Assembly: GCA_963771075.1 (NCBI GenBank)
Contig: CAVYSE010000028.1
Location: forward strand, 32,001 to 96,000
Direction of reading: 5' to 3'
Length of the DNA: 64,000 nucleotides
Origin: a candidate division FCPU426 bacterium
Lineage (GTDB): Bacteria; Oederibacteriota; Muellerivitia; Muellerivitales; Muellerivitaceae
Shown: positions 5,713 to 27,844 of the stretch, piece by piece
Position numbering within the stretch: the stretch's first letter is position 1
How the letters are laid out: each line of letters starts with the position of its first letter
The notes under the pieces: generated by a model
Databases searched by the model: none
What the model saw: only the letters and a program-made list of their open reading frames with translations
Told to the model about the DNA's origin: nothing
Translations under genes and position numbers: made by a program

Positions 5713-5741
5713 AAAAAAGGCGGCCCCAAAGGGCCGCCTTT
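5713..5741 (-). terminator. Intrinsic terminator ending the lipoprotein/porin operon
   Basis: GGCGGCCC-N4-GGGCCGCC 8-bp stem followed by a U6 tract on the minus strand. Confidence 0.8.
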
Positions 5742-5755: not shown

Positions 5756-6640
5756 TTAATAAAACTGGACGTTGTCGACCCAAAAGTCGGTGTAGGTGGA
5801 TACACCGGGGGCGCCAGGGGGGGGGCTGGGGCCGCCATTGGAGAACTGCCACAAAAGAAACAAGCCCAAATTCTCAAAGCTGGCCACAGGCTGGCCGTTC
5901 ACGCTCACAGGCTGGCCGTAGAGGATCGCGGGCGCGCTGAGGGCTTGGGTCGTGAGGCCGTCCGATCCGGTGGGAGAAAAACGGATTTTCATGCTACTGA
6001 ATGGAAGGGTCATGTGTTTCCAACCCGAAGTAGAACCCGAAGGCAGGTTGAAGTTAAAGTAGTTGTAGCAGTTGGCGCTATAGGGCGGCGGGCAGATTCC
6101 AGCCGGATCCGCCCCGGCGGGGGTATTTGCGGTAATGCCGACCTGAAACCAGCGCGCAGTATTCGTATCATCCGGGAGGATGTTGATGTCAAATTGGATG
6201 CCGGTGGGAAACTGGGAAAGGTCGTAAATATAAGGATCCGTCGGGTCGTTGGGGTTGTTCCTCAGGAAGCACCACAACTCGATGGCGGGATACTCGGTGG
6301 GGTTGGTGTCCGTTTGCTCGCCGTAAATGTGGACGGCGTATTGCCCCGTATCCGGCCGGGGCACCAATATGATGGGGTTCAAGCTGCCGTTGATCATGTT
6401 GGTATGGCCCGCGACACCGCCGGTGACCTCGCCCGTGAAATAACCGCCGGTTCCGTTCGTGAGGGCCGGGTTCACGAGCAGCGAGCCCTCGTGGAAGTTG
6501 CTGATGATGTCCACCGGCAGGGCGGGCGGGACCACGGAGGACACGGTGGGCACGGAACTCGTGCAGCCTTGGAAAAAGAAAAAAGTCATAAAGGCAAGGG
6601 CCAAGGAGCCCAAACCCCAACCCAGCCATTCTTTTTTCAT
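5756..6640 (-). CDS. Lipoprotein with CIA30/CBM11-like beta-sandwich (paralog 3)
   Basis: ATG 6640 with AGGAGG RBS; lipobox FQG|C; 'YDLSQFPTGIQF', 'C..CYNYF', 'GWKHMTLPFSSM', C-terminal 'DFWVDNVQFY'. Confidence 0.7.
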   Translation of the reverse strand: MKKEWLGWGLGSLALAFMTFFFFQGCTSSVPTVSSVVPPALPVDIISNFHEGSLLVNPALTNGTGGYFTGEVTGGVAGHTNMINGSLNPIILVPRPDTGQYAVHIYGEQTDTNPTEYPAIELWCFLRNNPNDPTDPYIYDLSQFPTGIQFDINILPDDTNTARWFQVGITANTPAGADPAGICPPPYSANCYNYFNFNLPSGSTSGWKHMTLPFSSMKIRFSPTGSDGLTTQALSAPAILYGQPVSVNGQPVASFENLGLFLLWQFSNGGPSPPPGAPGVSTYTDFWVDNVQFY

Positions 6641-6698
6641 TCCAAGCCTCCTACCGCTGAACATCGGTTCAAAGAGAGATATTTTTTTAATTCTACCG

Positions 6699-7613
6699 CT
6701 ATTTAAAGAATGAGATTTGATCCACGTAAAAATCCAAATTGGAGACGCCCGGCTTGTTGTTGCGGCTTCCGCTCCATTGGAGCCACATGATTTCCTGGAG
6801 ATTCTCGCCGCTCAGGGTGGGCGGGTTGGGGATGGCCCCGGATACCAGTTGCTTCAGGTCGCTGAAATTATACCGGAAAAATTCCCATTGGCCGCCGGTG
6901 CCCCCGGAGACGTCGGCCGCGAAATGGTCGTAGCAGAGGCTGGGTCCCGCGGTGCAGTCTCCCCCGGCCACCGGGGCGAGGGTGTGTTTAACGGGAATGG
7001 CGAAATGCCGCTGTATGGTCGTGTCGTCACTGGCGATCATCAGGTAAAACTGGACACCGGTGAAATTGCTTGCGTCAAAAAACGCCCCCCCCTCCGGGTA
7101 AGCGCAGAGGTCCAGCTCCGGGAAGGCTGCGTCGCCCTGGTCGGTGACGGGGCCGGACATGCGGTAGCCGAAGGCGTCCCCGTTCGGGCCGTTCCCTCCC
7201 AAGCCGACCAGGCCCCAGTACGTAAAGCCACAATAGGCCTTGAAATTATTCAGGACCGTCACGGTAGCGGAGGATGGACTTTTCAGGGTGTAGGAGGGGG
7301 GGTTGCCCGCGTCGAAGAGGCTGGGGTTAATGGGATAGCTATAAACAGGCTTGTTCGAAGTTTTGTAAACCACAGGGGCGTTGAAACTTGGGTTTTGAAT
7401 GAGGGAAACCGAGGGCGTGATCATGGCCAGAGTGTTGAAATCGGCCACCGAATCCCGGTTGATCTGGGAAGCCGGGGCTCCATAGGTGCCGACCACAGGA
7501 ATGGAATTTTGGCACCCAATGACCGCCAGCATCCCCATAGCGGCCAGGAAAGAAACGATCAAAACGTTTCTTTTGAAGCCCCTGGGGCTATTTCCCCTAG
7601 AATTGGATTTCAT
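6699..7613 (-). CDS. Lipoprotein with CIA30/CBM11-like beta-sandwich (paralog 2)
   Basis: Lipobox VIG|C; 'FDASNFTGVQFY', 'GGDCTAGPSLCYDHF', 'QWEFFRYNFSDL', 'DFYVDQISFF'. Confidence 0.7.
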   Translation of the reverse strand: MKSNSRGNSPRGFKRNVLIVSFLAAMGMLAVIGCQNSIPVVGTYGAPASQINRDSVADFNTLAMITPSVSLIQNPSFNAPVVYKTSNKPVYSYPINPSLFDAGNPPSYTLKSPSSATVTVLNNFKAYCGFTYWGLVGLGGNGPNGDAFGYRMSGPVTDQGDAAFPELDLCAYPEGGAFFDASNFTGVQFYLMIASDDTTIQRHFAIPVKHTLAPVAGGDCTAGPSLCYDHFAADVSGGTGGQWEFFRYNFSDLKQLVSGAIPNPPTLSGENLQEIMWLQWSGSRNNKPGVSNLDFYVDQISFFK

Positions 7614-10032
7614 AAGTCAGCTCCGCGTATTGGTTGTTGAGCGTGTTCCCGCTCGGTAAGGCCCCCACATAGGGTACCGCGTTTCCCCAGGTATAGTCAT
7701 AGTCCAAAAAAAGCCTGGAGTTGCGGTTCATGGTAAAGGTCATGGAAAGTCGCAGGCTGTCGTTGGTGCCGTTGATATTGAATATTTGGTAATTCCCCAG
7801 GTCGCTATTGTCAAAGATATAGGAATAACGGGCCATGGTGCTTCCCTGGTAGCCTGCTTCGGACCCGTTCACGCTGTCCACACTGAAGGAAAGGGCCGTA
7901 TTCCACCAGGGGAAAAGCCCCGCTTCCACGCCGCCTAAAACCCACGCGCTGGTCAAGGTGCCGATCGAGCTGTCCGTTTCCTCGTACCGGACATTGGTGC
8001 CGATCACCAGGTCTTCCGGGTCGTCGATGTAAGGCGCCAGGTTGATGGAAGGGCCCAAATTAATGTAGGTAAAGTTGCGGATGGGAACGGAAGTGACGGA
8101 AGCAGGCATATCCACCGGTACGAGCCCCGTTCCGTCCGTGGTCGCCACCAGGTTCGCCTGCATTTCCTGGACGAAATAGACCGAGCCCTTGATCTTCAGG
8201 GAGTCCTTGTCCAGCGTCTTCACGTCGATTTCCAAACCGCCGCCCTGTCGGTTGGGGGTGCCCAGGCCATAGGGGAAGGTATTGTCTTCCGTGCGGTCGT
8301 AGAATGAAAAGATGCCGCTCGCGCGGGGAACCCCCGATAGGAAGAACTGGCTCCGGAGCGGGTCGGTGTTGAATTCCGGCGTTGGCGCCGAACTGTTAAA
8401 GTTCGAGGTGGCGGTGACCAGGTCCTGGCGGGTCTGGGCGAGGGGCGAGAAGAAGTTGGGACCCACGTTCAGGAAATTGAACGAGATTTGGGAATGCTGG
8501 AATTTCAAATAGGGTCCGATCAGGAAGGCCCAGTCGGAAACGTTGTTACCGCTGTTGCGCGTATCATCTTCATATAACGAACTGGCGGTTTCCCAGGATG
8601 CGCCCAACACCATCCCGTCCCCAAGGGTCACGTCCACGGAGGGCTTGACGCTGAGGATTTCATATTGATGGGCCCAGGTTCCCACGCCATTTGGATCGTA
8701 GGGGCTGCCAGGCTGTTCGCTCTCCAAAGGCTCCCAGAGCAAAACGCCATAGGTGTCGAGGGAAAACTTCAGATTGGTGTTTCCTCCGATAAAAAGGCGC
8801 TTGGTGGCCAACTTTCCCTGCCCCGCGAATAGCCAGTCGGTGAAAAACCCGGGGCCGAAATAGGTGCCCCCGCTGGCCAGGTCGTTGAACCCGTTGCGGA
8901 TCATATCGGCCATGAGGGAAATATCGAAATGATCGAACCAGGTCGAGTCGGGCCAGGCCACCTCCGTGCCCAAGCGCAAGCCCCGGAAGGGCCAATTCGG
9001 CTCGTCGTTCAGGAAGCTTTCATACTTTAAAGTGTCGTCCTCGCGGGCCATCATTTCCGGCACCCAGCGCAGGTCCAGGTTGTCCCGGTTCCACATGGTT
9101 AAGGGAGTGTAGGATTCGTTGAAATCGCCCAAGGTCGCCGTAAACCAGGGAGTCTTAAGTTCCATGGTTCCCCGGCGCGGATAGAAGCTGTCGATCGCCT
9201 GGGAATCGTTCGCCACCATGGCGGTTCCATAGCGAACCATCAGTTCCCACCGGACCTGCTTGCTGACGACACCCTCGGGCTCAAAGTCGATATAGCCCCT
9301 TCCTTGGGAGTTGTCCTCGGGTGAAACGGTGGCTCCCGTCGTGGTCAGGGAAAGCCGTTGAACCGCGCCGAAGACCCGGCCCAAACCGTGCCAGGCGATG
9401 GTGGGGTACTCAGTGATCCCCTTGATTCTCTTCAAAAGGTCATATTGGGCGTTTTCCAGGTCTTGCGTCTTGTCCGCCAGGCCCTTCACCGGAGTCTGGA
9501 TATCCTTTAACTCATATTGATAAGCGTCTTCCAGGCTGTTCAAGGTCGCTGCGATCTTGGACCACTTGAGGGGGTCTTCCGGGGTCGCGGTGGGGGTGAC
9601 GGCGGCCGGAACGGCGGCTTGTGCTACGGGGGGAATTTCGGGCACGGATGAATCGGCCGGGCTTACGGGCGCTGGAGCCGGGGATGCGGGCACCGCCGCT
9701 ACGGGGGGGGCCGAGGACGAAGTGGAGGGAAGGCTGGGTTCCCCCAGATCGGGCGGGAGAGGTATCTCGTCAGCCTGGGCCACCACGATCTCACGGTATT
9801 GGTCGCGGGCCTTCGCCACCCGCTGGGCCACCTCAAAACGGGTCAAGGGGCCTTGGGAGTCGCCGGGGGAAAGCAAGCCGGCTTTTTCCAACTGGCCTAG
9901 TTGCAGGTAGGTCATGTCATTGGAAGGCACCACGGAAAAGATCCCTTCCGAGGCAAAAGCGGCGGCCAAACCCACCCCCCCGAAGAGGGCCAAGGCCAGG
10001 GCCAAACGCCCGGGATTAATAATGGGCTTCAT
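7597..10032 (-). CDS. SLH-like + Pro-rich linker + coiled-coil + large OM beta-barrel protein (paralog C)
   Basis: ATG 10032 (MKPIINPG..) with GGAGA RBS; signal peptide; 'FSVVPSNDMTY..LEKAGLL..LTRFEVAQRV' SLH-like; helical stalk; beta-rich aromatic body; BAM-type C-terminus 'ELTYEIQF'. Confidence 0.75.
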   Translation of the reverse strand: MKPIINPGRLALALALFGGVGLAAAFASEGIFSVVPSNDMTYLQLGQLEKAGLLSPGDSQGPLTRFEVAQRVAKARDQYREIVVAQADEIPLPPDLGEPSLPSTSSSAPPVAAVPASPAPAPVSPADSSVPEIPPVAQAAVPAAVTPTATPEDPLKWSKIAATLNSLEDAYQYELKDIQTPVKGLADKTQDLENAQYDLLKRIKGITEYPTIAWHGLGRVFGAVQRLSLTTTGATVSPEDNSQGRGYIDFEPEGVVSKQVRWELMVRYGTAMVANDSQAIDSFYPRRGTMELKTPWFTATLGDFNESYTPLTMWNRDNLDLRWVPEMMAREDDTLKYESFLNDEPNWPFRGLRLGTEVAWPDSTWFDHFDISLMADMIRNGFNDLASGGTYFGPGFFTDWLFAGQGKLATKRLFIGGNTNLKFSLDTYGVLLWEPLESEQPGSPYDPNGVGTWAHQYEILSVKPSVDVTLGDGMVLGASWETASSLYEDDTRNSGNNVSDWAFLIGPYLKFQHSQISFNFLNVGPNFFSPLAQTRQDLVTATSNFNSSAPTPEFNTDPLRSQFFLSGVPRASGIFSFYDRTEDNTFPYGLGTPNRQGGGLEIDVKTLDKDSLKIKGSVYFVQEMQANLVATTDGTGLVPVDMPASVTSVPIRNFTYINLGPSINLAPYIDDPEDLVIGTNVRYEETDSSIGTLTSAWVLGGVEAGLFPWWNTALSFSVDSVNGSEAGYQGSTMARYSYIFDNSDLGNYQIFNINGTNDSLRLSMTFTMNRNSRLFLDYDYTWGNAVPYVGALPSGNTLNNQYAELTYEIQF

Positions 10033-12310
10033 AGGTGAATCTCCAAATCTCGTCATTACGCGCGTAGGCGGCATTGTCGGCCCAAGTGTAATTGGTGAGG
10101 AAACAATCGGCCCGGATGTTAATCACGTTGCTCAAGGGATATTTCACCCCGAAGGCCCAGGTTTGCCGGGTCATGTTCATGGGCTGGTACACGAATTGGC
10201 CGCTTTGATTCAAGACGGGATCGATGTAAAAAACGTACTGGCCCAAAGTGGGCGGGTTGCCGTCCTGGTTGAGGACATATTCGCTTCCGGTGCTTTGGGT
10301 CTGCTCAAAAGCCGCCGACCAGACGGTGGTCCCGAACAATTTGAGGGGAATGTTGAAATCCGCCGCGGTAATGATGGTATTGGAAGTGAAGGGGGGATCG
10401 CCCATCCCCAGGTTCGTGGTCTGGTTCTTGTAATCCACCTGGAGGTCGTAGGTCTTTCCGCTCAGGCCCGCCAGCTTGGCGAAATGGAACGTCAGGGCCC
10501 CTTCCCCGCCCCCGAAGGTCCGGGCCATCGCGGTATTGCTTTGGCTGTCCACCGGGAGGAGTCCCGTGCCCGAGGTATTGAGGACTAGGTTCGGCTGGAG
10601 TTCATGCGCACTCATGACCACCGAGGCCTGGGGTTGGAGCCAGCCCTTTTCCCCCACCGCACCGGAAAGGCCCAGAAGGAATACCTGCCGGTTGGGCGTG
10701 GCATCCCCGTAAGGCAGCATGTTTTCCGCCGTGCGGTCATAGGGAGCGAAATAGGGCCGGTTCACGCCCTGGAAAGGGCTTTGGTTCAACAGCCCGGGGG
10801 CCGCGTCATCCAGGCCGGTCAGGTTGTTCGTCATATAGCCCTGGGCCGATTGGTCGGGGGAATAGCGGTTGGTTTGGGCCCCCGGCGAGTAGAAATAGGG
10901 ACCCACGTTCAGGTATTTGGTCGAGAGCTTGAGCCCGTAAACCTCCAGGCCCCCTTCCACGGACAAGGCCCAATCCTGGAAGACCGCCGCCGAATTGGTG
11001 GCGTCGTCGTTGTACTGGCTGAAGGCGCTCTCAAAACCAGCCGTCAATTTGATCTTTTCATCGAAGGGCACCGAGGCTTTCGACCAGACGCTTCCCACCT
11101 CATAGCTCTTGGCGTAATTGTCCGGGTAACCGGGAATATAGGGAACTTGGCCGCTGGCCGAATCCTGCCAAAGAAGAAGGCCCGTCAAACCCACCACCAG
11201 GTTTTGCTGCAGGAAGCCCAGGGAACCCTGCCCCCCCGCGAAGTAATTCCCGAAAGTGAGGGCGCCGATGTTGTCGCCCGGGTCCTGTTCCACCCCGACC
11301 ATGGACTCCAAATGGTAACTGCTCAGGTCCCAATTTTTACCCCAAGTCTCACCCACCGAGCCCTGGAAACCGCGCATTTTCCAATCATTGCCATGGTCCA
11401 AATAAAGCAGGTCCTCCGCATCATTGCGGGTCCGCTGGAGGGAGGTTGGGTCCACGAAAGTGTAAACGGGCGCGTTGAAATTCCATAAGGTGAAGGGCGT
11501 GTAGCTCTTGTAGAAATCACCTCCCTGGAATGTGGCGGCGCCGCTATAGCCGGAAAGGCTGATCCAGCGCAACTGATAGGGGGGCTGGATGGGGTCCTGG
11601 TAATACATGCCGATGGAGCGCCAAAAGCGGAAACTCACGTTGAAGAGAACGTCGGGAACGGGCACGCTCCGCAGGTCCAAATTCATGAAAATGGCCGCGT
11701 TGTAATCCATGGAAGGATAGGGCGAGTCCCCGAAGCCCCGGTAGAGGTACATATAACCGCGCGACTCCCCGCCGACCTCGGTGCCGGAGCGGGTCAAGTA
11801 TTTTTTCTGGAGGGCGGAAAAAAGTTCGTCGCGGGTCTGGGCGTCCACCAGGCGTTGTTCCAGCCGGTCCACCTGGATCCCCATGGCCGTCAATTCTGAG
11901 GCGAATTCATCGACCAATTGCTCGAAGCTCCGGGCCGGAACAACCTGGGCGGGAGAAGCGGCGGTGCTCCCTACCGGCGCCGGGGGCGATGAAAGGGTCG
12001 GCTCAGGGAGAGTGGGTATGCCCGTGTCGGGAACGGGAAGAAGGCCGGCATCGGCCTGGGCCAGCACCATTTGGGAAGCCTGGGCAGTCAGCTGGGCCAC
12101 TTCCAGGTTGGACATTTGCTCGACGTCCTTGTTGGGGTCGGGGACGAGACCCGATAGGATCAGGTCGTTCACCGCTAGATTGATCCAGGAGTCGCGGTCA
12201 TTCGTCGCCAACCGGCCATGGTCGGCCAGGGCGGGCAGGGCCAGGCCCAGCCAAAGGGCCAGGAAGGGGGTTAGCTTTTTCACCATCGCGTTAAGTTTCA
12301 AAGGTTCCAT
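10016..12310 (-). CDS. SLH-like + Pro-rich linker + coiled-coil + large OM beta-barrel protein (paralog B)
   Basis: Signal peptide; degenerate SLH 'SWINLAVNDLILSGLV..MSNLEVAQL'; OmpM/SomA-type stalk 'LVDEFASELTAMGIQVDRLEQRL'; ends 'FTYEAHY'. Confidence 0.75.
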   Translation of the reverse strand: MEPLKLNAMVKKLTPFLALWLGLALPALADHGRLATNDRDSWINLAVNDLILSGLVPDPNKDVEQMSNLEVAQLTAQASQMVLAQADAGLLPVPDTGIPTLPEPTLSSPPAPVGSTAASPAQVVPARSFEQLVDEFASELTAMGIQVDRLEQRLVDAQTRDELFSALQKKYLTRSGTEVGGESRGYMYLYRGFGDSPYPSMDYNAAIFMNLDLRSVPVPDVLFNVSFRFWRSIGMYYQDPIQPPYQLRWISLSGYSGAATFQGGDFYKSYTPFTLWNFNAPVYTFVDPTSLQRTRNDAEDLLYLDHGNDWKMRGFQGSVGETWGKNWDLSSYHLESMVGVEQDPGDNIGALTFGNYFAGGQGSLGFLQQNLVVGLTGLLLWQDSASGQVPYIPGYPDNYAKSYEVGSVWSKASVPFDEKIKLTAGFESAFSQYNDDATNSAAVFQDWALSVEGGLEVYGLKLSTKYLNVGPYFYSPGAQTNRYSPDQSAQGYMTNNLTGLDDAAPGLLNQSPFQGVNRPYFAPYDRTAENMLPYGDATPNRQVFLLGLSGAVGEKGWLQPQASVVMSAHELQPNLVLNTSGTGLLPVDSQSNTAMARTFGGGEGALTFHFAKLAGLSGKTYDLQVDYKNQTTNLGMGDPPFTSNTIITAADFNIPLKLFGTTVWSAAFEQTQSTGSEYVLNQDGNPPTLGQYVFYIDPVLNQSGQFVYQPMNMTRQTWAFGVKYPLSNVINIRADCFLTNYTWADNAAYARNDEIWRFTYEAHY

Positions 12311-12315
12311 TTCCG

Positions 12316-15036
12316 TTAAAACAAGAATTTAATTTTGCTGAAAAACTGGTCGCCCGAATAGTTGTTCACCGGCACATAGGCGTCGGCAAAGTCGATATGC
12401 TTATAACGGAACTCCAGCTTCCCGCCGCCCCAGGGGATATCCCAGCCCAACCCTAAGCCGTACTCGTTGGTCTGGTAATTCACTTGCGGATAGGTGTAAT
12501 TGGAGGTCCAGGTTTCCACGCCCCTATCCACCATCAGGTCCAGGTTCTTGATGATATTGACCATGAGCGCGCCGCTGAAAACCTGTTGGGTGAAAAGGTT
12601 GGGGAAACTGCCTCCGGCCAACGAGGGGGCGTTGGAGGTGGGTGAGCCCGGGGATGGCGCGGTCCCGTTGGCCGCCGCGTTGGGATTCAGGAAATCGGTG
12701 GCCGCGGCCGATGCCGCGGAAACCTGGTTATCCGTCATGTAAAAGGAAAGATCCACCGGAAGGGGCGTGTGCAGCCAATCCCCTGCTTTGATCTTGGTGG
12801 TGAGCGTGATGTAGTTGTAGCTCTTCAGGCCCTGGATATTGGCGTACTCGTTGAAACCCTTGGATAACCCGCTCGTGTAGGTGGCCGGGGCCTGGCCTGT
12901 GGCGCCGGGGGTGAGGCTTAAGTTACCGCCATTGTTGTAAATAGGCAGGATCAGGGGGAGGCGCTCGGAGGTCATCCGGAACTGATACCTTACGTCGTCG
13001 TTGATGATATCCCCGTCGTTGCGCATGGCTTCTATATTATTGATGTAGTCCTGGCGCACCGGGTTCACGTTGGGGGAATAGTTGCCCCACATGTCCAGGC
13101 CCCAAAGCCCCTCGTCGTCGGGATAATAAAAACTCAGGAACTGGGTGGGTTCGACGGTGTTGTACCCTTCCGGGTCCTGCTCGGAGACGTACTCGTTCTT
13201 TTGGGAGATGTCGAAATTGACCACGATGGAGTCCAGGAAGGAGGGCCATTTCTTCATGAAATCCTGCTTGCGCCCGCTCCAGCCGAAATTGAAGCGCCAG
13301 CCGTAACGGTCGGTCTGCAGGTTGTCCACTTCCCCGACGGCGCCGTAAACGTCCTGGAAATCCGAGGGGTTGAAGGAAAGGCCGTAGTGGAAGAAGTTCA
13401 GGCCGCTCATGGTGACCTTGCTTTGGAAATCGGAATAGGCGTCGCCGATGGCGAACCCGTAAACAGTGAATGGATAGAAGGCCACCGAGCCTTGGCCCGC
13501 GCCCGACTCGATGGGGCTGGAATCGAGCACGGTGTTGCCGGTGTTCAGGAATTCCGGCCCCTGGATCTGAGTGCCGGTATAGAAATGGGAGAAGGCCCCA
13601 TCCAGGCCGATCTGCAGCTTGTTCAGGTTGAAAAAGATGTCCGCCTCATAATCTTTCATGTCCAGCTGGGGCGTAAGGGGCTGAACCATGCCTAAATTGT
13701 CGTTCACCCATTCCGCCGAGAAGGCGGTTCGGATCAGGTTATTGGCCCAGGGCTCCTCGATCTTGAGGCCTTCTTCCCAGCGCTGGGTCTGGAAGGGGGT
13801 TTCCCCCATGCGACCCACGATGAACCACATGCGACCGCCTTGGGCCATCCAGGGCAGGTCGTGCCCCACCGCGTACATGCCGTCGAACACACGGTCGCTG
13901 GCGGATTGCACGTTCCCGGCGGACGCCGCGTAGGCGGGGATGTAGCTGACCTGGGACATGTAATCGTCCCAGTTTTTGCCGTTCTTGTCATCGTTGAAAT
14001 TCTTGATGTCGAAGGGATCCTCAAAGCGCTTGATGGAGTTGTTGGCGTAGCCCCGGCTGAAATTTCCGAAGGTCGTGTCGGGCTGGTAGCATTCCACCGC
14101 GAAGGTGGTGTCCCATTTGCCCAGCCCGCCGTAAAGGTGGAAGGTCGCGCTGGGGTTACCGAGGTAAATGGAGGCGGGGGCGGTTCCCACGCCCGCCACC
14201 TGGTACTTTCCCGAGAAGTTGTCGAAGGGCAGGATCATCCCGAAACCGGTGGAGACGGTCCCCAGGCCTCCCATGTCGGTGTACATTCCGACCCAGGCCT
14301 CCTGGAGGATCTTCGTGGCGCTTTCCTGGGCGATGCCGGTCAGGTTCAAGTTCTCGAAGCGTACGTTGGTGTTGGTGTTGAAGTTGGGGATCCCGACGGA
14401 CTTGTTGGCCTTTTTCCAAACCGAATCCACGTCATCCTGGACCTTCTTGAGACTTTCCAGTTCGGCCTGGCGGTCCTTCAACCTTTCGTCCTCCTGGGCC
14501 AGGCGGGTCTTGAGGATCTGGGTGGAGTCGCCGAGTTGTTTCAGGAGTCTCTCGATTTCCGTTTTGGCGGACGGCGGATAATTGGGTGCCAGGGTCGGAA
14601 CCGGGACGGGTGTGTTCTCCGGGGGGGCGAGGGGAGCCATGGTCGGGACGGGAACCGCCTCCGGCACCAAGGGTTCCGGAATGGCGGGAGGGGCGACTTC
14701 CGGGACGGATGGGATGCTCACGGGTGCCGTGGGCAGGGTCACCGGGACAGGGGTGGGTACGGGCGTGGGTGCGATTCCCAGGGTGGGTGCCTCAATACGG
14801 GCTTTGGCCTTCTCGGTATAAAAAGCCAATTCCATTCGGGTCACGACCTTGCCCTGGTCCAAAACCTGCTGGTCGTCCGGGTCCAATAGTCCGTAGGTTT
14901 CCAGGTGCTTCACCTGCTGGTAAAGGGGCGCGTCGGAAGTGACTTCCTCGTAGGGGTTGGCCTGTAAGGGGCTCGCGGTAAAGATACCCAGCAAACCCGC
15001 CAGCGCCATCAAAAGGATTAAAAATTTAAGTTTCAA
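12316..15036 (-). CDS. SLH-like + Pro-rich linker + coiled-coil + large OM beta-barrel protein (paralog A)
   Basis: Signal peptide; 'PYEEVTSDAPLYQQVKHLETYGLL..VTRMELAFY' SLH-like; coiled coil 'EIERLLKQLGD..LKTRLAQEDERLKDRQAELESLKK'; ends 'FSKIKFLF'. Confidence 0.75.
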   Translation of the reverse strand: MKLKFLILLMALAGLLGIFTASPLQANPYEEVTSDAPLYQQVKHLETYGLLDPDDQQVLDQGKVVTRMELAFYTEKAKARIEAPTLGIAPTPVPTPVPVTLPTAPVSIPSVPEVAPPAIPEPLVPEAVPVPTMAPLAPPENTPVPVPTLAPNYPPSAKTEIERLLKQLGDSTQILKTRLAQEDERLKDRQAELESLKKVQDDVDSVWKKANKSVGIPNFNTNTNVRFENLNLTGIAQESATKILQEAWVGMYTDMGGLGTVSTGFGMILPFDNFSGKYQVAGVGTAPASIYLGNPSATFHLYGGLGKWDTTFAVECYQPDTTFGNFSRGYANNSIKRFEDPFDIKNFNDDKNGKNWDDYMSQVSYIPAYAASAGNVQSASDRVFDGMYAVGHDLPWMAQGGRMWFIVGRMGETPFQTQRWEEGLKIEEPWANNLIRTAFSAEWVNDNLGMVQPLTPQLDMKDYEADIFFNLNKLQIGLDGAFSHFYTGTQIQGPEFLNTGNTVLDSSPIESGAGQGSVAFYPFTVYGFAIGDAYSDFQSKVTMSGLNFFHYGLSFNPSDFQDVYGAVGEVDNLQTDRYGWRFNFGWSGRKQDFMKKWPSFLDSIVVNFDISQKNEYVSEQDPEGYNTVEPTQFLSFYYPDDEGLWGLDMWGNYSPNVNPVRQDYINNIEAMRNDGDIINDDVRYQFRMTSERLPLILPIYNNGGNLSLTPGATGQAPATYTSGLSKGFNEYANIQGLKSYNYITLTTKIKAGDWLHTPLPVDLSFYMTDNQVSAASAAATDFLNPNAAANGTAPSPGSPTSNAPSLAGGSFPNLFTQQVFSGALMVNIIKNLDLMVDRGVETWTSNYTYPQVNYQTNEYGLGLGWDIPWGGGKLEFRYKHIDFADAYVPVNNYSGDQFFSKIKFLF

Positions 15037-15084
15037 AACAAGTCCCTTGAATTCATAGGTATTGAAAAATCCGTCTCCCAGGCT

Positions 15085-15855
15085 TTAAAAAAACTCGATG
15101 TCATCCACCCAATAATCGATGTTATAAGTCCCGGCGTTGTTGTCTCCGCCGTGATCCCACTTGACATAAACGAATTCATTGAGATGGTCCACCAAATCCG
15201 GAGGAACCACGGGGGAACCCCACCCAGGCTCCCGAGGCAGTTCGGTGAATTTATAGGAACAAAACTTCCAGTCGGTCGTAGGGGCCATATAGGCGCCGAA
15301 ATGGTTGTAACAATCGGTCGCGCAGGTCCCTCCGTCCTGCGGGGGCAGGGTGGGCGAGGTTCCGATGGCAAAACGCCGCTTGATGGCCTGGTCGTCCTCG
15401 GGGCACTTGTAATAAAACTGGATTCCGGAAAAGGCGCTGGCGTCATAAAAACCGCCCGACTTGAACTGTCCCTGCAGGGTGAAGGAGGGATAGGACCGGT
15501 CTCCCTTGTCCGTCAGGCTTCCGGTCACGTGGGCGCAAAAGGGCAATCCGTTGGGCCCGCCCTTGTCGATAAAAACAGGGTTCGGAGTGTTCCCCGCGAA
15601 TGAAAAAACCATAAAAGAACCAGTGGCGCCGCCGTAAAGTTTGGAGTTGATCGCCTTGTTGCCGCCCTCGAAATTGCAGATGATTTTTTGTTCGGCGGGA
15701 ACGATGACTTTCGGCTTACTTAAATCGGGATTGACCAATCCGTCCCGCAGGGAGGACATCTTGGAACCAGGATTGATGAAGACTGCGCCACAGCCGGCGA
15801 GGACGAACAGGAGGAAAAGCCCCAGGCACCAAGCGTAAAATTTCGGGGAAAACAT
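15085..15855 (-). CDS. Lipoprotein with CIA30/CBM11-like beta-sandwich (paralog 1)
   Basis: Lipobox LAG|C; 'ICNFEGG', 'YDASAFSGIQFY', 'GGTCATDCYNHFG', 'DWKFCSYKFTEL..PGWG', 'YWVDDIEFF'. Confidence 0.75.
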   Translation of the reverse strand: MFSPKFYAWCLGLFLLFVLAGCGAVFINPGSKMSSLRDGLVNPDLSKPKVIVPAEQKIICNFEGGNKAINSKLYGGATGSFMVFSFAGNTPNPVFIDKGGPNGLPFCAHVTGSLTDKGDRSYPSFTLQGQFKSGGFYDASAFSGIQFYYKCPEDDQAIKRRFAIGTSPTLPPQDGGTCATDCYNHFGAYMAPTTDWKFCSYKFTELPREPGWGSPVVPPDLVDHLNEFVYVKWDHGGDNNAGTYNIDYWVDDIEFF

Positions 15856-16195: not shown

Positions 16196-19100
16196 TCAGG
16201 GCTTCGGTTTCCGAGCCGGGGAGGTTCCCGTGACTCCCTTCACATAGGCGAAGTCAAAGGCGTGCACCGAGTCATCCGGGGTCTCCACCAGGATAGCCGC
16301 CATGGTCTGGCTGTCCCGCTCGGGCTGCGCCTCCTTGGGCAGGTTCACGAACATGCTCTTCACCCGAACCACCATGCCGGGGGAAACATCCAGGGGACCC
16401 ACCGTCGAAAGCACGTTGTAATAGTCCTTCGTGGTGTCCAATTGCCTCAAGATCAAACCCTTGATGGTATTGGCGGTCGGGTTATGGATATCCACCGTCA
16501 AGGGTACTTCTGCGCCCAAAGACGCTTCCTTGGGCGCGGTCAGGCTCACCTCCACCGGCAGCAGTCCCTCCTCCTGGCGCAGGGTCGTGAAGGCCTTCCC
16601 GCCCGAGATCGCCCATTCCATCCGGGAATAGGGGCCCCGGACGCCCCAGATCAGGCGGTAAAGGTCATGCCAGAACATGCCCAGGTTGGCGTTCAAGCCG
16701 TACCAAAGGTTGAATGTTTCTACTTCCCGGTTATAGAGTTCCTCCGGCGCGGGAGGATCCAGGCTTTTCTGCACCATGTTAAAATCAACTTCCTCGCCCG
16801 GAACGTACATGCCCCCTTCCCGGGAAAGGTACCCCGGCCAATGCCGTTTCATGTCCTCGATGGTGCTGCGATCCCCCTCATAAAGCATGATGTGGTTGAA
16901 GTTGATCCCGGCGTCCACCAGCATGGCCGGGTCTTGCCCGTGTTGGTGCCCCATTTCCCAACCCAGGGTGAAGGTAAAAACGGGCTTCGTCATTTTTGCC
17001 TGGTCCAGGACATTTTTCAGCACCATCGCCACCTTGTGCGCCCGCCACCACTCGAAAAGGGCTACCACCTGCGGATCCGTATTTCGTTCCACGGTATGGG
17101 CCAACCAATGGATGCGGTCGGGCTCGGCCATCGTGTCGAAACCCTCGGGCAGGTTCATGTTCAGGTCCTTCACGAACTCATCCACCAGCTCATAACCCGC
17201 AAAACCGGTACGGACGTAATCCAGCCCCACGAAATCCACGTTGGAGTCTTTGTTCATGGTCTGGAGGAAATCCAGGATGTCCTGCTGGCGTTTCGGGTCG
17301 TCGAGGGAAATGAACCGGGTCTGGATTACCTGATCCGTGCTCAAGTCATAGCCGAGGGAGAATTGATAAGGGGCCTGGTGCCATCCGTCCCCCTCGACCT
17401 TGAAGGTGGTCATGTAGGCTGCGTACTTTATCCCCGCCGCGTGGGCGGCCTGGGCGTACTTGCGCCCGTTCTCCATTTCCTCCCGGTTGAAGGGAAAATC
17501 CTGGGGATAAAATCTTTCCCAAATGGAGGTATCCCCCACCAGGTTGCAAAAAACGTTAGCGCCCATGAATTTCGTCCAATCGATGGCGTGGGCCGGGCTC
17601 ATGGTGCCGCTGGCGTCCAGCGATGGAATGGCCCCGCGGATCAACTGTTTGCCCCCCTCCATGGTCAGGACCGCGTAACCCGGATCCAGGCCGGAAGGCC
17701 TCAGGGGCGGGATGGTGAAGGCCGATTGAAAGACCCTCGGGTTGGAACGATCCGGGTCCACCAGGACCAATTGGGCCAGGTAGGTGCCCGGCCGGGGGTT
17801 AAACGGAACGGGCCAATTGCCCGAGAATTTCCGGCCTTCCGCTTCTTTTCTTAATTCCACCCTCGTATGGCCGTCCACCAGGGTGACCGGTTTCCCGTTC
17901 ATGAGAACTTCCACATAGGCGTGGCTGTTCACGAAACGCCTATAGTTCATGGAGCTGACTTTCAACTCAAAGGGCACCATCTCATACCTTAAAAAGCTGC
18001 CCTTGGGCATGAGGGCCACCACATCGGGGATTTCCAGGGAGAGGGTCTTGAGAGGAATGGTTTGCTGACTCGCCAAGGAGGTCAGGGTGGCCTTGGCCAG
18101 GAAGGCCAACACCAAAAAACCGAACAGGACCCCTAGGAAACCCCAGGCCCGGCGGGAAGAATTCTGTTGAAGAACCCAAGCTTCCTTTAATTTTTCCAGG
18201 CCGGACCCTATCCCGGCGAAGATCGAACGGGAAGTGGAAATAACCGGGCTTGGATCCTCGGCCGTGAAAAGGGGGTCTACGGAAACGGAAGAAGGCGTGG
18301 CAGGCTCACGGTTAGAAATGGGCTCGGCGGCCTGATCGATCCCCATCGACCCTTCCAAGATCATCCGTTGGAGTCTTTCCTCGGAAATGAATCTTTCGGT
18401 TTCAGTCGCGGACGGCGGAGACGCCTCCAATGGATTGGTTTTCCCCGATTTTTCCGCTAAAGAGGGCGCTTCGGATAGGTTCTCAATGACGGTCTCCTCG
18501 TCATGGATCGCGTTTTCCAGGGCCTCCCCAATGGTCGTGAATTTCATCCGGTCCTCTTCGGACATCTCCTCAAGGACGGTCCCTCTTGTCAGGGCTTCGG
18601 TTTCCAAGGGGCCAGGTTCCTCATTGCGAGCTTTATCCTCGGTTGACAAGTTTTGGAGGGCAGGTCCGGCCATGAGAGGTGAAGGCATCTCCTGGGGCAA
18701 TTCATCCTCCGGAAGGGAACCCCACAAAAAACGCCGAATGGCTTCTTCCCGCTCCGCCGGATTGGCGGAAGCACGCGTGATGTTAGCTGGATCGGCCGCC
18801 TTTTTAGCCGCTGCTTTGGCTCGCGCCCAGTTTCGATAGGCCTGTTGAGCCCCTCCCCATAATTGCATTGCTTGGTTTTGCTTCCCCCGGACCCAAACCC
18901 AAGCCGAAGACGCTGTTCCCAGGGCGGAGGAAACTCCCCTCCCCAAGAGTCTCACGGTGTTCAGGAGGATTGAATCTCCCGGTTTTTGGACTTCCTCCCG
19001 TGGGAGTCGGAAAGGCTCCAACGCTTGGCGAATGGTGGCGTCGACGGTCGACTCCCGGGGGATAACCCGGTTGAGGCGGACCACCGTCTCCACGTGATAG

Positions 19101-20497
19101 GTCTGGGGAAACATGTCGAGGGGCTGGGCCCAATCCACCGCGTAACCATGCTTGACCAGCAGGGATAGGTCCCTCGCCAGGGTGGAGGGATCGCAAGAGA
19201 CGTAGACGATGCGTTGGGGCTGAAGGGCCCCTATCCGAGCGAGCACTTCGGGCAAAACCCCTTTCCGGGGAGGGTCCACGATGACCGCGTCCACCTGGTT
19301 GAGGCCCTTTTCCCTCAAACCCAAAAGGACCTGGGCCACATCCCCTTCCAAGAAATCGATGTTGTCTTTTCCGTTGAGCGTCAGGTTGGCCTTGGCGTCC
19401 TCTACCGCGGGTCCTACTTCCTCGATCCCCACCACGTATTCGCATTCGTTGGCAACTCCCAGGGCCAGGGTGCCGATCCCGCTGTAAAGATCAAGCGTCG
19501 TGGGCCATTTTCCCCCGTTCTCGGGGCCTCCCAGGGCTTCCCGCACCACCGAGTGCAGCAGGTCGGCTTGGGCTGTGTTCACCTGGAGGAAGGATTGGAG
19601 CGAGACCTTCAAGCGGAGCTGGTCGATCTCCTCAAAATAATGGTCCCGTCCGGCGAGCACCTTGGTCTGCGATCCAAAAACGATGTTGGTGCGGGATGGG
19701 TTGATGTTTTGCAAAACCCCCACCAGGGAGGGGACCTCCGCCATCAATTCCCGGGCCAAGCGGGGCAGGATGTCTTCCAGGGATTCGGCCGATACGCCCG
19801 TCGCCTGAACCCTTTCCTCGGGAATCTCCGAGCGCGTTACCAGGGCCAGCAGGATCTCGCCGGTCATTTCGCCCCGGCGTACCGCCAGGTGCCGGAGGAA
19901 TCCCGAGTGCTTTTTTTCCTGGTAGGGCGTCAGGCCCGACCGGTCGATCTTGCGCAGTACCTGCTGGATAAGCTCGTTGATCCCGTCCGCCTGGATGGGG
20001 CAATTCTGGTAAGGCACCAGCTTATGGGACCGGGGCTCGTAAATGCCCGCCACGAAGTGCCCGTCCCTCATGGAAAGGACCGGCATGGCCTTGTTGCGGT
20101 AATGGTAGGGAGAGGGGGAGGGGAGGCAGGGCTGAACGTTGATATTCGGCATCTTGCCGATACGCTCCAAGGCGTCCACCAGGAATTGGCGTTTGGCCTG
20201 GAGCTGGAGGGGATATTGGAAGTGCTGCCAATGGCAGCCGCCGCATTCCTCAAAAATGGGACAAGGCGGCTCTACCCGATCGGTGGACCGGCGGAGAATT
20301 CCGGTGATTTTTCCGACGGCGAAATGGTCCTTGACCTGGGTAACCTGGACGGTCACCTTCTCTCCCGGCAGGCCCCCGGGCACGAAAATAGCGAAATCCT
20401 GGTACCGGCCCACCGAATCACCGCCGAAGGCCAGGGTGGTGATCTCCAACTCGATCTTGTCGCCAAATCGGACAGGTTTAACGGCTTTGGTTTTCAT
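16196..20497 (-). CDS. rlmD: 23S rRNA (uracil-C5)-methyltransferase RlmD fused to linker, TM helix and a GH-like extracytoplasmic region
   Basis: N-terminal ~475 aa contain TRAM, 'CPIFEECGGCHWQH', 'YRNK', 'SFLQVN', 'LDLYSGIG', 'DPPRKG', 'YVSCDPSTLARD', 'DMFPQTYHVETV'. The frame stays open for a further ~960 aa including TM 'AWGFLGVLFGFLVLAFLA'. Confidence 0.85.
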   Translation of the reverse strand: MKTKAVKPVRFGDKIELEITTLAFGGDSVGRYQDFAIFVPGGLPGEKVTVQVTQVKDHFAVGKITGILRRSTDRVEPPCPIFEECGGCHWQHFQYPLQLQAKRQFLVDALERIGKMPNINVQPCLPSPSPYHYRNKAMPVLSMRDGHFVAGIYEPRSHKLVPYQNCPIQADGINELIQQVLRKIDRSGLTPYQEKKHSGFLRHLAVRRGEMTGEILLALVTRSEIPEERVQATGVSAESLEDILPRLARELMAEVPSLVGVLQNINPSRTNIVFGSQTKVLAGRDHYFEEIDQLRLKVSLQSFLQVNTAQADLLHSVVREALGGPENGGKWPTTLDLYSGIGTLALGVANECEYVVGIEEVGPAVEDAKANLTLNGKDNIDFLEGDVAQVLLGLREKGLNQVDAVIVDPPRKGVLPEVLARIGALQPQRIVYVSCDPSTLARDLSLLVKHGYAVDWAQPLDMFPQTYHVETVVRLNRVIPRESTVDATIRQALEPFRLPREEVQKPGDSILLNTVRLLGRGVSSALGTASSAWVWVRGKQNQAMQLWGGAQQAYRNWARAKAAAKKAADPANITRASANPAEREEAIRRFLWGSLPEDELPQEMPSPLMAGPALQNLSTEDKARNEEPGPLETEALTRGTVLEEMSEEDRMKFTTIGEALENAIHDEETVIENLSEAPSLAEKSGKTNPLEASPPSATETERFISEERLQRMILEGSMGIDQAAEPISNREPATPSSVSVDPLFTAEDPSPVISTSRSIFAGIGSGLEKLKEAWVLQQNSSRRAWGFLGVLFGFLVLAFLAKATLTSLASQQTIPLKTLSLEIPDVVALMPKGSFLRYEMVPFELKVSSMNYRRFVNSHAYVEVLMNGKPVTLVDGHTRVELRKEAEGRKFSGNWPVPFNPRPGTYLAQLVLVDPDRSNPRVFQSAFTIPPLRPSGLDPGYAVLTMEGGKQLIRGAIPSLDASGTMSPAHAIDWTKFMGANVFCNLVGDTSIWERFYPQDFPFNREEMENGRKYAQAAHAAGIKYAAYMTTFKVEGDGWHQAPYQFSLGYDLSTDQVIQTRFISLDDPKRQQDILDFLQTMNKDSNVDFVGLDYVRTGFAGYELVDEFVKDLNMNLPEGFDTMAEPDRIHWLAHTVERNTDPQVVALFEWWRAHKVAMVLKNVLDQAKMTKPVFTFTLGWEMGHQHGQDPAMLVDAGINFNHIMLYEGDRSTIEDMKRHWPGYLSREGGMYVPGEEVDFNMVQKSLDPPAPEELYNREVETFNLWYGLNANLGMFWHDLYRLIWGVRGPYSRMEWAISGGKAFTTLRQEEGLLPVEVSLTAPKEASLGAEVPLTVDIHNPTANTIKGLILRQLDTTKDYYNVLSTVGPLDVSPGMVVRVKSMFVNLPKEAQPERDSQTMAAILVETPDDSVHAFDFAYVKGVTGTSPARKPKP

Positions 20498-20682
20498 TCT
20501 TGCCTTTAACGATCAGGGTCCCACCTGGGGACTGTCTTCTTGAAAATTCCCTTTTGAAGCGGTTGCATTTTAAAGTATTTTTGCGCCAAAACGTATCCCA
20601 ACCTGGGATTGCGAAGGATATACTTTCCCCGCCGCGGTTTGGGAAACCGTTCAACGGGGCTGATCGGGAGGGGAGATTGGCA

Positions 20683-22146
20683 ATGAAAAGGCTTTCTTGG
20701 GCGTTGGGATTATGGATCCTATTCATGGGGTCCGGCCGCCTCTGGCCCTCCGAGACAAGGGTCGATTCCACCGGCGGCTTGACGACCATCCTGACGGATG
20801 AAACCACCGACTTGAGCTTCATTATGGACGGAAACCCCGCGGGGCTCCTCCTATTGGACACCCATGACCGGTTGGACGAGGCCTTTCAATGGGGCCAGCA
20901 AAATACCCAGCCCTCCGGGCCGGGTTCCTACCAACAAACCTACGGTTCGATTCCCCGCCTTTTGGGGGACAATGACCTCCATTATTCGGGTTGGATGGCT
21001 TTCCCTTCAAAGGGTGTCGCTTTCCAGGCGGGAGGGGACTTCCTGTCCCAATCGGGCCAGACCACCGGTGTGGCCGATACCTTTACCCTCGGCCAATACC
21101 GGGGCTTGATCCGCGGCGCGGCGAGCCTGGGCCCCCTGGTCCTCGGCTTGGAAGTACGGAATATGGAATCGAACAACGCCTATGACCCGGGGCTCTATTC
21201 GGACAAAACCCTCCCCTATAGCCTCCAGAACGGCTCCAGCGCCCTGAACCAAACCTACCTTCGCGCGGGACTCGCCACCACCTTTCCCGAAAACCAGGGA
21301 CCGGATGACGCCTATTGGCAGGCGGGTGGACTCTTCGAGGCCCAGGTCGCGGGCGGTAATATCGCTTTCAACGCCAATCTCGATTACCCGGGCGGAAACA
21401 CCTTCGCCCTGCGGCAGAACAACAGCTATACCGATTACTATTACTTCGGCCCCGAGCTGAGGTATGTCATTCCCCATCACGCCATTTTCCGTTTCAGTTA
21501 TTTCCTGACCTATGACGACACCAATTTCGAACGGACGGTCTCGGCCACCTCCCCCGATTACGCCAACCTGAACGCCTATCACTCCACCCAATATCAATCC
21601 ATGAACGCCAGCGGGGCCTTCCGGTTGATCTTCCCCACCTCGGGACGGGAAAACCTGAAAATTGGCGGCTTCATTTCCTCCTTCTTCAACAACACGGATG
21701 ATTTGAGTACCGTCGAAAACGTCTATACCAACACGAACCGCCAGCAAATCCAAACGAACCTGGGGGTAGGCCTGGAAACGATCCATGATTACGCCTTTGG
21801 AATCCAATTTGAGAGCCAGACCTACACACTGGATAACACCTCCATCGCTTCCGCGGCCACCACGGCCCAAAGCGACTACAATTATTACCAATTCGCCCTA
21901 GGCGGGGAGAAATGGCTGGACGATCATCTCGCTTTCCGGCTGGGCTTGTCGGGGGAGGATGACGAATATTTCCAGGCCTCCAACCTAGAAAACCTCGTCG
22001 CTTTGTTGAACGCCGGGTTGGGCTGGGAGGACACGACTTGGGCCTGCGACCTGAGGCTTTGGGTGGGGGAGCAAACCAACCTTCAGGATTCCTCGAACCA
22101 GGGGAATTTGGGCGGCTTCGAGGTCTCAGGGACCGTCTTTCTTTAA
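20683..22146 (+). CDS. Predicted outer-membrane beta-barrel protein
   Basis: ATG 20683 after GGGAGGGGAG; signal peptide MKRLSWALGLWILF..; amphipathic aromatic beta-strands; ends 'GFEVSGTVFL'. Confidence 0.65.
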   Translation: MKRLSWALGLWILFMGSGRLWPSETRVDSTGGLTTILTDETTDLSFIMDGNPAGLLLLDTHDRLDEAFQWGQQNTQPSGPGSYQQTYGSIPRLLGDNDLHYSGWMAFPSKGVAFQAGGDFLSQSGQTTGVADTFTLGQYRGLIRGAASLGPLVLGLEVRNMESNNAYDPGLYSDKTLPYSLQNGSSALNQTYLRAGLATTFPENQGPDDAYWQAGGLFEAQVAGGNIAFNANLDYPGGNTFALRQNNSYTDYYYFGPELRYVIPHHAIFRFSYFLTYDDTNFERTVSATSPDYANLNAYHSTQYQSMNASGAFRLIFPTSGRENLKIGGFISSFFNNTDDLSTVENVYTNTNRQQIQTNLGVGLETIHDYAFGIQFESQTYTLDNTSIASAATTAQSDYNYYQFALGGEKWLDDHLAFRLGLSGEDDEYFQASNLENLVALLNAGLGWEDTTWACDLRLWVGEQTNLQDSSNQGNLGGFEVSGTVFL

Positions 22147-25600: not shown

Positions 25601-26428
25601 ATGACGAGCCAGTTAAAAGCCGCCGTGGAAGCCGCCCAAGCCGCCGGTTCCCTCCACCGCCGTTTCTACGGAAAAACCCTGAAGATCGAACTTAAAAAGG
25701 ACAATTCCTTGAACCTGGTCACCCAGGTGGACAAGGCCTGCGAGAAAAAAGTCCAAACCATCCTTCACGAGCGTTTCCCCGCTTTTAATTTTTGGGGTGA
25801 GGAAAGCGGGCAGGACGCGGGCGATTCGGAATATACCTGGATCGTGGATCCCCTCGACGGCACCACCAACTTCGCCCATGCTTATCCCTTCTTTTGCGTC
25901 TCGATCGCGTTGCTTCAAGGAAAAAAACTGGTCCTCGGGGTTATCTATGACGCCATGAATCACGAATGCTTCACGGCGGAAAAGGGCAAGGGCTCATTCC
26001 TTAACGGGAAACGCATTTATGTCTCAACCGTTTCCAAGCTTTCGAAAAGTTTCTTGAGCACGGGCTTCGCCTACGGGGTTAAGGAAACCCTTTATAACTT
26101 TGAGAACTTCAAGAATTTCGTCTTGAACAGCCAGGGTGTCCGACGGGACGGCTCAGCGGCCATGAATTTGGCCTATGTCGCGGCGGGACGCTTTGACGGC
26201 TTCTGGGAAAGGGGCATCCAGGCATGGGACATGGCAGCGGGGATTCTTTTGATACGGGAGGCAGGCGGCAAGGTGACGGACATTTCGGGTCAGCCCTTTG
26301 ACCTCATGGCGCAAAACGCCCTGGCCAGCAACAGCAGGATCCACCGGCAGATGCACAGGATATTGTGGGCGGGGCCGGATGAGAAAAATTGGGTTTTACA
26401 AAACTCCAAAAAAGGTTCCCTGGGTTGA
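25601..26428 (+). CDS. suhB: Inositol monophosphatase family (SuhB-like)
   Basis: 'WIVDPLDGTTNFAH', 'RRDGSAA', 'WDMAAG'. Confidence 0.88.
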   Translation: MTSQLKAAVEAAQAAGSLHRRFYGKTLKIELKKDNSLNLVTQVDKACEKKVQTILHERFPAFNFWGEESGQDAGDSEYTWIVDPLDGTTNFAHAYPFFCVSIALLQGKKLVLGVIYDAMNHECFTAEKGKGSFLNGKRIYVSTVSKLSKSFLSTGFAYGVKETLYNFENFKNFVLNSQGVRRDGSAAMNLAYVAAGRFDGFWERGIQAWDMAAGILLIREAGGKVTDISGQPFDLMAQNALASNSRIHRQMHRILWAGPDEKNWVLQNSKKGSLG

Positions 26429-26482
26429 ACTCCCATCGTTTCACCCAGGCCAACCTCGGTTTCAAGGTCTTCCCCATTGATA

Positions 26483-27253: not shown

Positions 27254-27275
27254 AAAAATCCCTAGATGGCGGTCC

Positions 27276-27381
27276 ACAGCTCGCAGTCCGCGGGGAAGCC
27301 GTGAAAGTCTAGCCGCGGGCCGCGAACTGCCAACTGCGGTCTGCTTTTTCTACCAACTGAGGACTGCCGACTGTCTACTGC
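27276..27381. repeat. Heptamer tandem/inverted repeat tract
   Basis: ACTGAGG-ACTGCCG-ACTGTCT-ACTG and ACTGCCA-ACTGCGG facing CAGCTCG-CAGTCCG. Confidence 0.5.
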
Positions 27382-27385
27382 TTCT

Positions 27386-27844
27386 TCATTTCCCCGCGTT
27401 GCGCATGCGGATCTTTTCCGCCAGGAGGTAGCGGTCCAGTTTCGCGACGTCCTGTTTATTGATGGCGAGGATCTTCAACCCCGCCCGGAAGGTGGACCCG
27501 GCCGCCCCGGCGGATTCCATCCCCGCCCGGACCACCTCGGCCAGGAGGTTCAGGGGAATGGGCTGGCCAGGCAGGTAAAGCTGGATCTGCAGGGCACAGT
27601 CCTGCGGGAAAGTCTCCTGCCCCACCAGGGACATGCCCCCCATGGAAATATCCCGCGTGACGGCGTGCAGGGTCGCGCTTCTTTTGGATAACTCGGGCAG
27701 GTGGTCGGCGGTGGATTCCCGGTAAGCGGGGTCGGCCAGGGAGGTCACCAGGACTTCCTTTTCGATGACCATATAGGTCACCTTCACGGTGGCGTCCACG
27801 CGTTCGGATTGGCGTTTTTCCATCCATCCCGACTTCATGTTCAT
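27386..27844 (-). CDS. PilZ-domain protein
   Basis: 'KRQSER' (RxxxR) and 'DISMGG' (DxSxxG) c-di-GMP-binding motifs. Confidence 0.85.
   Translation of the reverse strand: MNMKSGWMEKRQSERVDATVKVTYMVIEKEVLVTSLADPAYRESTADHLPELSKRSATLHAVTRDISMGGMSLVGQETFPQDCALQIQLYLPGQPIPLNLLAEVVRAGMESAGAAGSTFRAGLKILAINKQDVAKLDRYLLAEKIRMRNAGK

Follow-up and report, generated by a model that had tools for sequence, protein, structure and literature searches.

Does an operon that encodes three stalked outer-membrane barrels together with three lipoproteins specify a glycan importer, and if so, is it a new one? The question is raised by a 64,000-nt stretch of a candidate division FCPU426 bacterium (assembly GCA_963771075.1, contig CAVYSE010000028.1, positions 32,001 to 96,000, forward strand), the whole of which is called the window below. 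A preliminary description made from the letters alone had pointed out six tightly packed minus-strand genes closed by a single terminator, in the order lipoprotein, barrel A, barrel B, barrel C, lipoprotein, lipoprotein (LP1, A, B, C, LP2 and LP3), and had proposed them as a candidate new system. The layout is borne out by the open reading frames (ORFs), the intergenic gaps (48, 5, -17, -17 and 34 nt from LP1 to LP3) and the hairpin, which lies 15 nt past the last stop and is the strongest terminator-like one in a 17-kb scan, the hairpin count of the whole scan being no higher than in shuffles (20 versus 23.5). None of the six proteins is named by Pfam or NCBIfam. That the system is new throughout is not supported, as the core barrel pair has already been published from Cytophaga hutchinsonii. 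Judged by homology, the operon is a variant of the chu_1276-1280 'atypical' polysaccharide utilization locus (PUL) that carries, in addition, surface layer homology (SLH) stalks and an extra B-type barrel.

In C. hutchinsonii, cellulose use requires chu_1276 and chu_1277 as well as chu_1279; CHU_1276 is predicted to be a barrel, CHU_1279 has a binding domain similar to the carbohydrate-binding module (CBM) CBM11, and the cluster was sought in two close relatives alone (PMC12016534). PMC5891637 is in agreement on chu_1276-1280. A profile of B, C and distant relatives matched 69 of 99 genomes of the phylum of the window (66 strongly and three weakly, with 30 giving no match), and 63 loci labelled Bacteroidota were among the 80 matches listed from the same scan. 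In 58 of these 63 listed loci a barrel gene of about 650 aa lies directly 5' of a homolog of about 570 aa, the other five being cut. The downstream Bacteroidota barrel is CHU_1277-like, and B matches it with a profile probability of 99.9% (E 1e-31), compared with 0.5% for the upstream barrel; C matches the CHU_1277-like family equally well (99.9%, E 2e-32). Barrel A matches the upstream barrel at 95.1% (E 3e-8) and the downstream one at 51%. The comparison with CHU_1276-1280, suggested in the preliminary description, was positive for B and C. No record named Cytophaga hutchinsonii is among the 90 homologs listed; the first ~360 residues of CHU_1277, as given in the supplement of PMC5553014, match by eye the motifs and spacing of the downstream barrel of one Bacteroidota locus (L111). 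This locus and two others (L116 and L118) have the chu_1276-1280 arrangement, in which two barrel genes are followed by a lipoprotein gene, a two-domain lipoprotein gene and one more gene; in L111 this last gene encodes a glycoside hydrolase (GH) of family GH9. On these profile matches, B and C belong to the CHU_1277 family.

Other loci from the scan show further arrangements. L109 and L117-L174 (Flavobacteriales, Saprospiraceae and others) hold a stalk-less pair, a lipoprotein and a CBM30-like protein, with GH2-like, GH3 and NrtR/AraR regulator genes, and the Cytophaga-type module is found in many aquatic Bacteroidota, far more widely than PMC12016534 reports. In L160, labelled uncultured Bacillus sp., a B-like barrel gene lies between two genes of 700-780 aa, together with a sugar-binding protein; label and gene type are mismatched, and the contig is possibly misplaced.

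The stalk and the third barrel set the operon apart from its Bacteroidota relatives. A stalk was detected in 0 of 52 and 0 of 58 Bacteroidota barrels, as against 39 of 48 control A proteins that lay outside the set from which the stalk profile was built. As far as their contigs reach, eight distant loci and 13 named loci (L095-L107, one of them labelled Candidatus Goldiibacteriota) have two stalked barrels, one A-like and one B-like; none of them has a third. A quick tree built from 64 sampled barrel domains (midpoint root, short search) puts B and C together beyond a branch with support 99 and apart from single-copy relatives, which fits a lineage-specific duplication. The three barrels had been described as paralogs; this applies to B and C (27-32% identical), but A aligns with them in the N-terminal stalk part only. 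A literature search, mostly without subscription papers, found no description of the stalked barrel operon.

Barrel B was modelled with AlphaFold2 from 104 sequences (predicted local distance difference test, pLDDT, 84; predicted template modelling score, pTM, 0.74). The model has short helices at residues 41-52 and 68-85, a disordered Pro-rich linker, helices at 126-173 and then 22 long strands, a number counted from the secondary-structure list rather than from coordinates. Fold searches with B returned outer-membrane barrels only, none of them prominent (best Z 13.4 with many ties; best Foldseek template modelling score 0.36), and model and searches together support the barrel fold that had been read from the sequence. 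OmpM1 of Veillonella parvula (8bym) scored Z 12.7, level with unrelated porins. The two longest insertions, after strands 5 and 13, are loops L3 and L7, and both hold many residues that are invariant across phyla. In OmpM1 the barrel is constricted by L3 and L7 (PMC10628300), and by analogy these loops may constrict barrel B. No plug or TonB-dependent-transporter domain was matched by Pfam in A, B or C, and the N-terminus of B is SLH plus coiled coil in the model. Among the Atlas look-alikes of barrel A residues 215-906 is a 729-aa cluster without a name (score 0.94) that comes mostly from Fibrobacterota and may point to a similar system in Fibrobacter.

The OmpM/SlpA domain architecture claimed for the large proteins is borne out, but the sequence match is confined to their SLH/stalk heads, and by sequence the barrels are not of the OmpM/SlpA type. 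Profile A2 matched residues 1-120 of OmpM1 (8bys) at E 7.5e-15, and separate profiles of A, B and C matched it over the head alone (E 2.3e-5, ~3e-5 and ~9e-4). Beyond the stalk, profile searches gave no match of A, B or C to OmpM1, and the Pfam SLH family itself (PF00395) had no match to the operon proteins. The barrel proteins have the features noted earlier, namely the TRME, SNLE and TRFE motifs, the coiled coils, the Pro-rich linkers and an aromatic residue at the C-terminus. Among aligned relatives the SLH motif differs by slot, being T[R/K]LE for A, TR[F/Y]E for C and, accompanied by the SLH tryptophan, TNLE for B. The SLH glycine is present in all three slots and the tryptophan in B alone (90/95 covering rows), while the Arg position of TRAE is Arg (41/48) or Lys (7/48) in A, Arg in C (47/47) and Asn in B (95/95). 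The distance from coiled coil to first strand is constant within each slot (47/48, 99/100 and 45/47 for A, B and C), and the Pro-rich linker ranges from 26 to 234 residues. The genome has one pyruvyl-transferase-family match, which was not tied to an SLH ligand.

For LP1, the AlphaFold2 model (pLDDT 91) and a fold search support the CBM11/CIA30-like fold that had been proposed for the lipoproteins. The best match is CtCBM11, 1v0a (Z 16.5, root mean square deviation 2.9, 161 aligned), followed by CIA30 (Z 15.4); by sequence, LP1 reaches E 0.6 at best against CBM11 and has no Pfam match. The lipobox cysteine is present in 105 of 105 aligned lipoproteins, in keeping with their original assignment.

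The cassette is strongly conserved, as had been expected. A strong match to B was found in all 31 genomes of the family and in the sole other genome of the order. Fifty-five loci were compared: the three copies of this genome, and the 52 non-self loci left when two whose contigs are very short are dropped from the 54 with a strong B match. The order A-B-C is seen in 52 of the 55, the remaining three running off contig ends, and LP1 lies 5' of A in 45 of the 48 loci with upstream DNA (one divergent). The predicted 3+3 layout is not a general feature: of the 49 loci with downstream DNA (six are cut), 24 have at least two LP1-family lipoproteins there, 14 have one, and 11 have none but an unrelated lipoprotein. 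Since these counts vary, the unit is best described as LP1-A-B-C plus variable lipoproteins. In 50/54 loci the end of B and the start of C overlap by 17 nt, and the same overlap is seen between C and the next lipoprotein (the LP2 slot) in 38/38; the overlaps suggest translational coupling of B, C and LP2, with the caveat that the C-terminal Tyr-Glu codons of the barrels favour such an ATG.

Three LP1-A-B-C cassettes are present in the 4.39-Mb genome, on contigs C28 (the window copy), C24 and C26, and their same-slot proteins are 39-52% identical. In this assembly there are frameshifts in A of the C24 copy as well as in B and C of the C26 copy, whereas the window copy is intact; the frameshifts may be assembly errors. 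The C24 copy (57166-65495) is adjoined by a GH44 gene and lies with genes for a sugar-binding protein, LacI and galK, and the C26 copy (25696-34360) lies near a GH30 gene and an esterase-CBM11 fusion; the cluster at the window copy has no endoglucanase. In 29 loci the primary copy lies between rlmD and lepA, and the window copy is this family-wide housekeeping copy. Neighbouring genes were labelled by cluster, and hydrolases outside the scored sugar clusters were not counted. Genes for a glycoside hydrolase, an esterase, a sugar-binding protein or a sugar kinase lie within ~9 kb of 18 of the 26 secondary copies, the genes including GH44, GH30, GH2, GH29, GH31, GH42, esterase, sugar-binding protein and galK. 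The extra copies are likely to be substrate-specialised. LacI-type operator words occur 5' of LP1 in many relatives and not in the window; the scan was made without a control and is not used.

The link to glycan use also gains support at the level of whole genomes. GH9 is present in 57 of the 66 phylum genomes with a strong barrel match and in 6 of the 30 without one (the three weak matches left out), five of these six coming from a single family (f3). Family f3 is rich in GH9 and GH5 and may use another uptake route. TonB-dependent receptors were found in 97 of the 99 genomes, so the GH9/barrel pattern does not come from genome completeness. The genome of the window has 14 GH5, 2 GH9 and five OmpA-domain matches, and SusD (PF07980) had no match in this 96.7% complete genome, with the control positive. 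As first noted, the window lacks a TonB-dependent receptor, yet the genome encodes 9-10 of them elsewhere. The lack of a plug in the barrel suggests that the channel is probably TonB-independent. For Goldbacteria, cellulase activity has been shown, and the accessible part of PMC7031533 has no passage on outer-membrane proteins. The nearby LacI and GH8 genes that had been cited in support are weak context, lying 8 kb and 42 kb away, and with the CBM-like gene of the window they were set aside as evidence because of distance.

We consider it reasonably probable that the three predicted barrels and the three predicted CBM11-like lipoproteins assemble into a cell-wall-tethered oligosaccharide channel without SusC or SusD. 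Secreted glycoside hydrolases would release oligosaccharide fragments from plant polysaccharides, and the operon lipoproteins would hold these at the surface or stabilise the complex. The fragments would then diffuse through the loop-constricted barrels without TonB, to be taken on by periplasmic binding proteins and hydrolases. The SLH heads on their coiled-coil stalk would bind the wall, the complex doubling as a tether.

Several points weigh against such a channel. Scored sugar genes were found near 0 of 29 primary copies, the window copy included. The GH9/barrel counts come from kin genomes that are not independent, nine strong barrel carriers are without GH9, and in family f3 (G001-G005) GH9 is present in 5/5 genomes with no match to either barrel profile. 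TonB is encoded in the genome (4 matches). The operon lipoproteins match the CHU_1278-like family weakly (profile probability 31%) and the CHU_1279-like family at 0.9% (from a template of 4 sequences), and the upstream Bacteroidota barrel, and with it A, is placed as the putative CHU_1276 counterpart by gene order. The papers offer transport by CHU_1276/1277 as a hypothesis, and CHU_1279 can do without cellulose binding in vivo (PMC12016534).

The window copy might instead be mainly a structural outer-membrane tether and general porin like OmpM, with any glycan role confined to the extra copies or vestigial. We think this unlikely, though it accounts for the SLH/stalk homology to OmpM1, the housekeeping neighbourhood of all 29 primary copies, the lack of any other Pfam SLH match in the genome, and the presence of the locus throughout the family and in the other genome of the order, five of these genomes being without GH9. 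It sits less well with the stalk-less Bacteroidota members of the barrel family, which are placed among glycoside hydrolases, with the coupling of CBM-like lipoproteins to the barrels, or with the 30 of 99 phylum genomes that have no barrel match; five OmpA-domain proteins could tether the membrane instead. The tether and channel roles are, moreover, not exclusive.

A role as a surface scaffold instead of a pore, one on which hydrolases are displayed or arranged and which keeps the cell on its substrate, appears clearly improbable. Loss of CHU_1276 or CHU_1277 reduces cell-associated beta-glucosidase activity (PMC5553014), it is more important that CHU_1279 is there than that it binds (PMC12016534), and the GH8 protein nearby has a weak tail resembling those of type IX secretion systems (T9SS), all of which would suit a scaffold. 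A plugless barrel of ~22 strands is, however, large for an anchor, Cytophaga mutants still adhere to cellulose (PMC12016534), and periplasmic sugar-binding proteins are encoded at secondary loci. That the barrels are energised importers using TonB or another inner-membrane motor via the stalk is very improbable: they are near in size to TonB-dependent transporters, with which the longest structural alignments (360-404 residues) are obtained and which were among the hits retrieved by CHU_1276 (PMC12016534), and TonB is encoded in the genome, but no plug domain was found by Pfam or in the model, the first strand of the Bacteroidota relatives starts right after the signal peptide, and the inspected loci have no recognised tonB or exb gene.

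Within the proposed tethered channel, we tentatively suggest, as possible rather than probable, that the three barrel proteins are obligate partners in a heterotrimer. In it, A, B and C would bring together three dissimilar barrels of 22 strands on one three-chain coiled coil, and three distinct SLH repeats would make up a composite, asymmetric wall-binding head. Gain of the stalk and duplication of B would have turned a two-gene importer of the Cytophaga type (perhaps A1:B2) into this complex, which would be both a tether and a TonB-free oligosaccharide gate. The suggestion draws on the threefold assembly as which the SLH heads of OmpM1 act (PMC10628300), the constant company of A, B and C, the slot-specific SLH motifs and stalk lengths, and the B/C/LP2 overlaps. 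Net charges of the coiled coils are mildly negative in all and do not discriminate between a homo- and a heterotrimer.

The features of the operon are collected in Table 1.

Table 1. Features of the stalked barrel operon and their positions in the window
Feature	Position	Strand	Description
LP1 lipoprotein	15085..15855	-	256 aa; LAGC lipobox, Cys22; single CBM11/CIA30-like beta-sandwich (predicted); conserved first gene of the cassette
Barrel A	12316..15036	-	906 aa; signal peptide, SLH-like head (T[R/K]LE), Pro-rich linker, coiled coil, predicted barrel; putative counterpart of the CHU_1276-position barrel
Barrel B	10016..12310	-	764 aa; signal peptide, SLH-like head (W, G, TNLE), linker, coiled coil, predicted ~22-stranded barrel without plug; CHU_1277 family by profile
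Barrel C	7597..10032	-	longest ORF from 10074 (825 aa), true start probably 10032; TR[F/Y]E head; probable lineage-specific sister of B
LP2 lipoprotein	6699..7613	-	304 aa; LP1 paralog (37% over 162 aa)
LP3 lipoprotein	5756..6664	-	302 aa; paralogous to LP1 and LP2 (24-26%); belongs to the variable section of the cassette
Intrinsic-terminator-like hairpin	5716..5741	-	11 pairs, 8 G-C, T tail; ends the operon ahead of lepA

Three other genes of the window were noted. The GH8 protein (57661-62628, minus strand) is 1655 aa long and has a weak T9SS-like C-terminal domain (E 0.007). The protein encoded at 16196-20497 (minus strand) is a fusion in which aa 1-480 form an RlmD/RumA-type RNA methyltransferase and ~950 more residues follow, with a predicted membrane segment; its C-terminal domain is unnamed, the last 633 aa having no Pfam or NCBIfam name, and the fusion recurs in 26 fetched loci. 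A probable outer-membrane protein of 548 aa without a family name is encoded at 20500-22146 (plus strand) and is syntenic in 12 fetched loci.

Cellulose uptake by Cytophaga without SusC or SusD is an open question, and the barrel pair needed for it is found here in a second, largely uncultured phylum as well as in many Bacteroidota. In the operon the Cytophaga-type barrel is fused to a wall-binding stalk of a kind known to trimerise, and the locus yields predictions on stoichiometry, on the absence of a plug and on the role of L3 and L7. If true, the heterotrimer would fix the stoichiometry of the unsolved CHU_1276/CHU_1277 complex. The copies beside GH44, GH30, GH2 and GH31 are natural variants for substrate specificity.

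Four known systems can be set beside the operon. With OmpM1 (8bys, 8bym, 8bz2; PMC10628300) and other SlpA-type tethers it shares a signal peptide, one SLH repeat, a coiled-coil stalk and a C-terminal barrel, and the long loops of B correspond to those constricting OmpM1. OmpM1, however, is a homotrimeric general porin of 16 strands, compared with ~22 in B, and is matched by sequence over the head only, whereas in the operon three subunits that have diverged keep a fixed order, their SLH motifs are specific to the slot, the Pro-rich linker is variable and lipoproteins are coupled to them. With SusC/SusD PULs it shares an outer-membrane barrel and surface glycan-binding lipoproteins (both predicted here) and copies among carbohydrate-active enzymes, but its barrels have no plug domain and no sequence homology, the genome has no SusD, and a wall-binding stalk is predicted. 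In structure, LP1 is best matched by CBM11 of Clostridium thermocellum Lic26A-Cel5E (1v0a, 6r3m) and by CIA30/NDUFAF1, at 16-19% identity; LP1 has a conserved Cys pair of its own, and its ligand binding is putative. Like chu_1276-1280 (PMC12016534; PMC5553014), the operon has its homologous barrels, in matching order with A before B/C, ahead of lipoproteins with a CBM11-like fold (predicted here), and neither cluster has SusC or SusD. It differs in the SLH head, Pro-rich linker and coiled coil of each barrel, the duplicated second barrel, the lipoprotein ahead of the barrels and the phylum, and its single-domain lipoproteins are not detectably orthologous to the two-domain CHU_1278 and CHU_1279, with which they share the CBM11-like fold alone. 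The operon would work like chu_1276-1280 and is OmpM-like at its head, yet it departs from both systems in features that define them.

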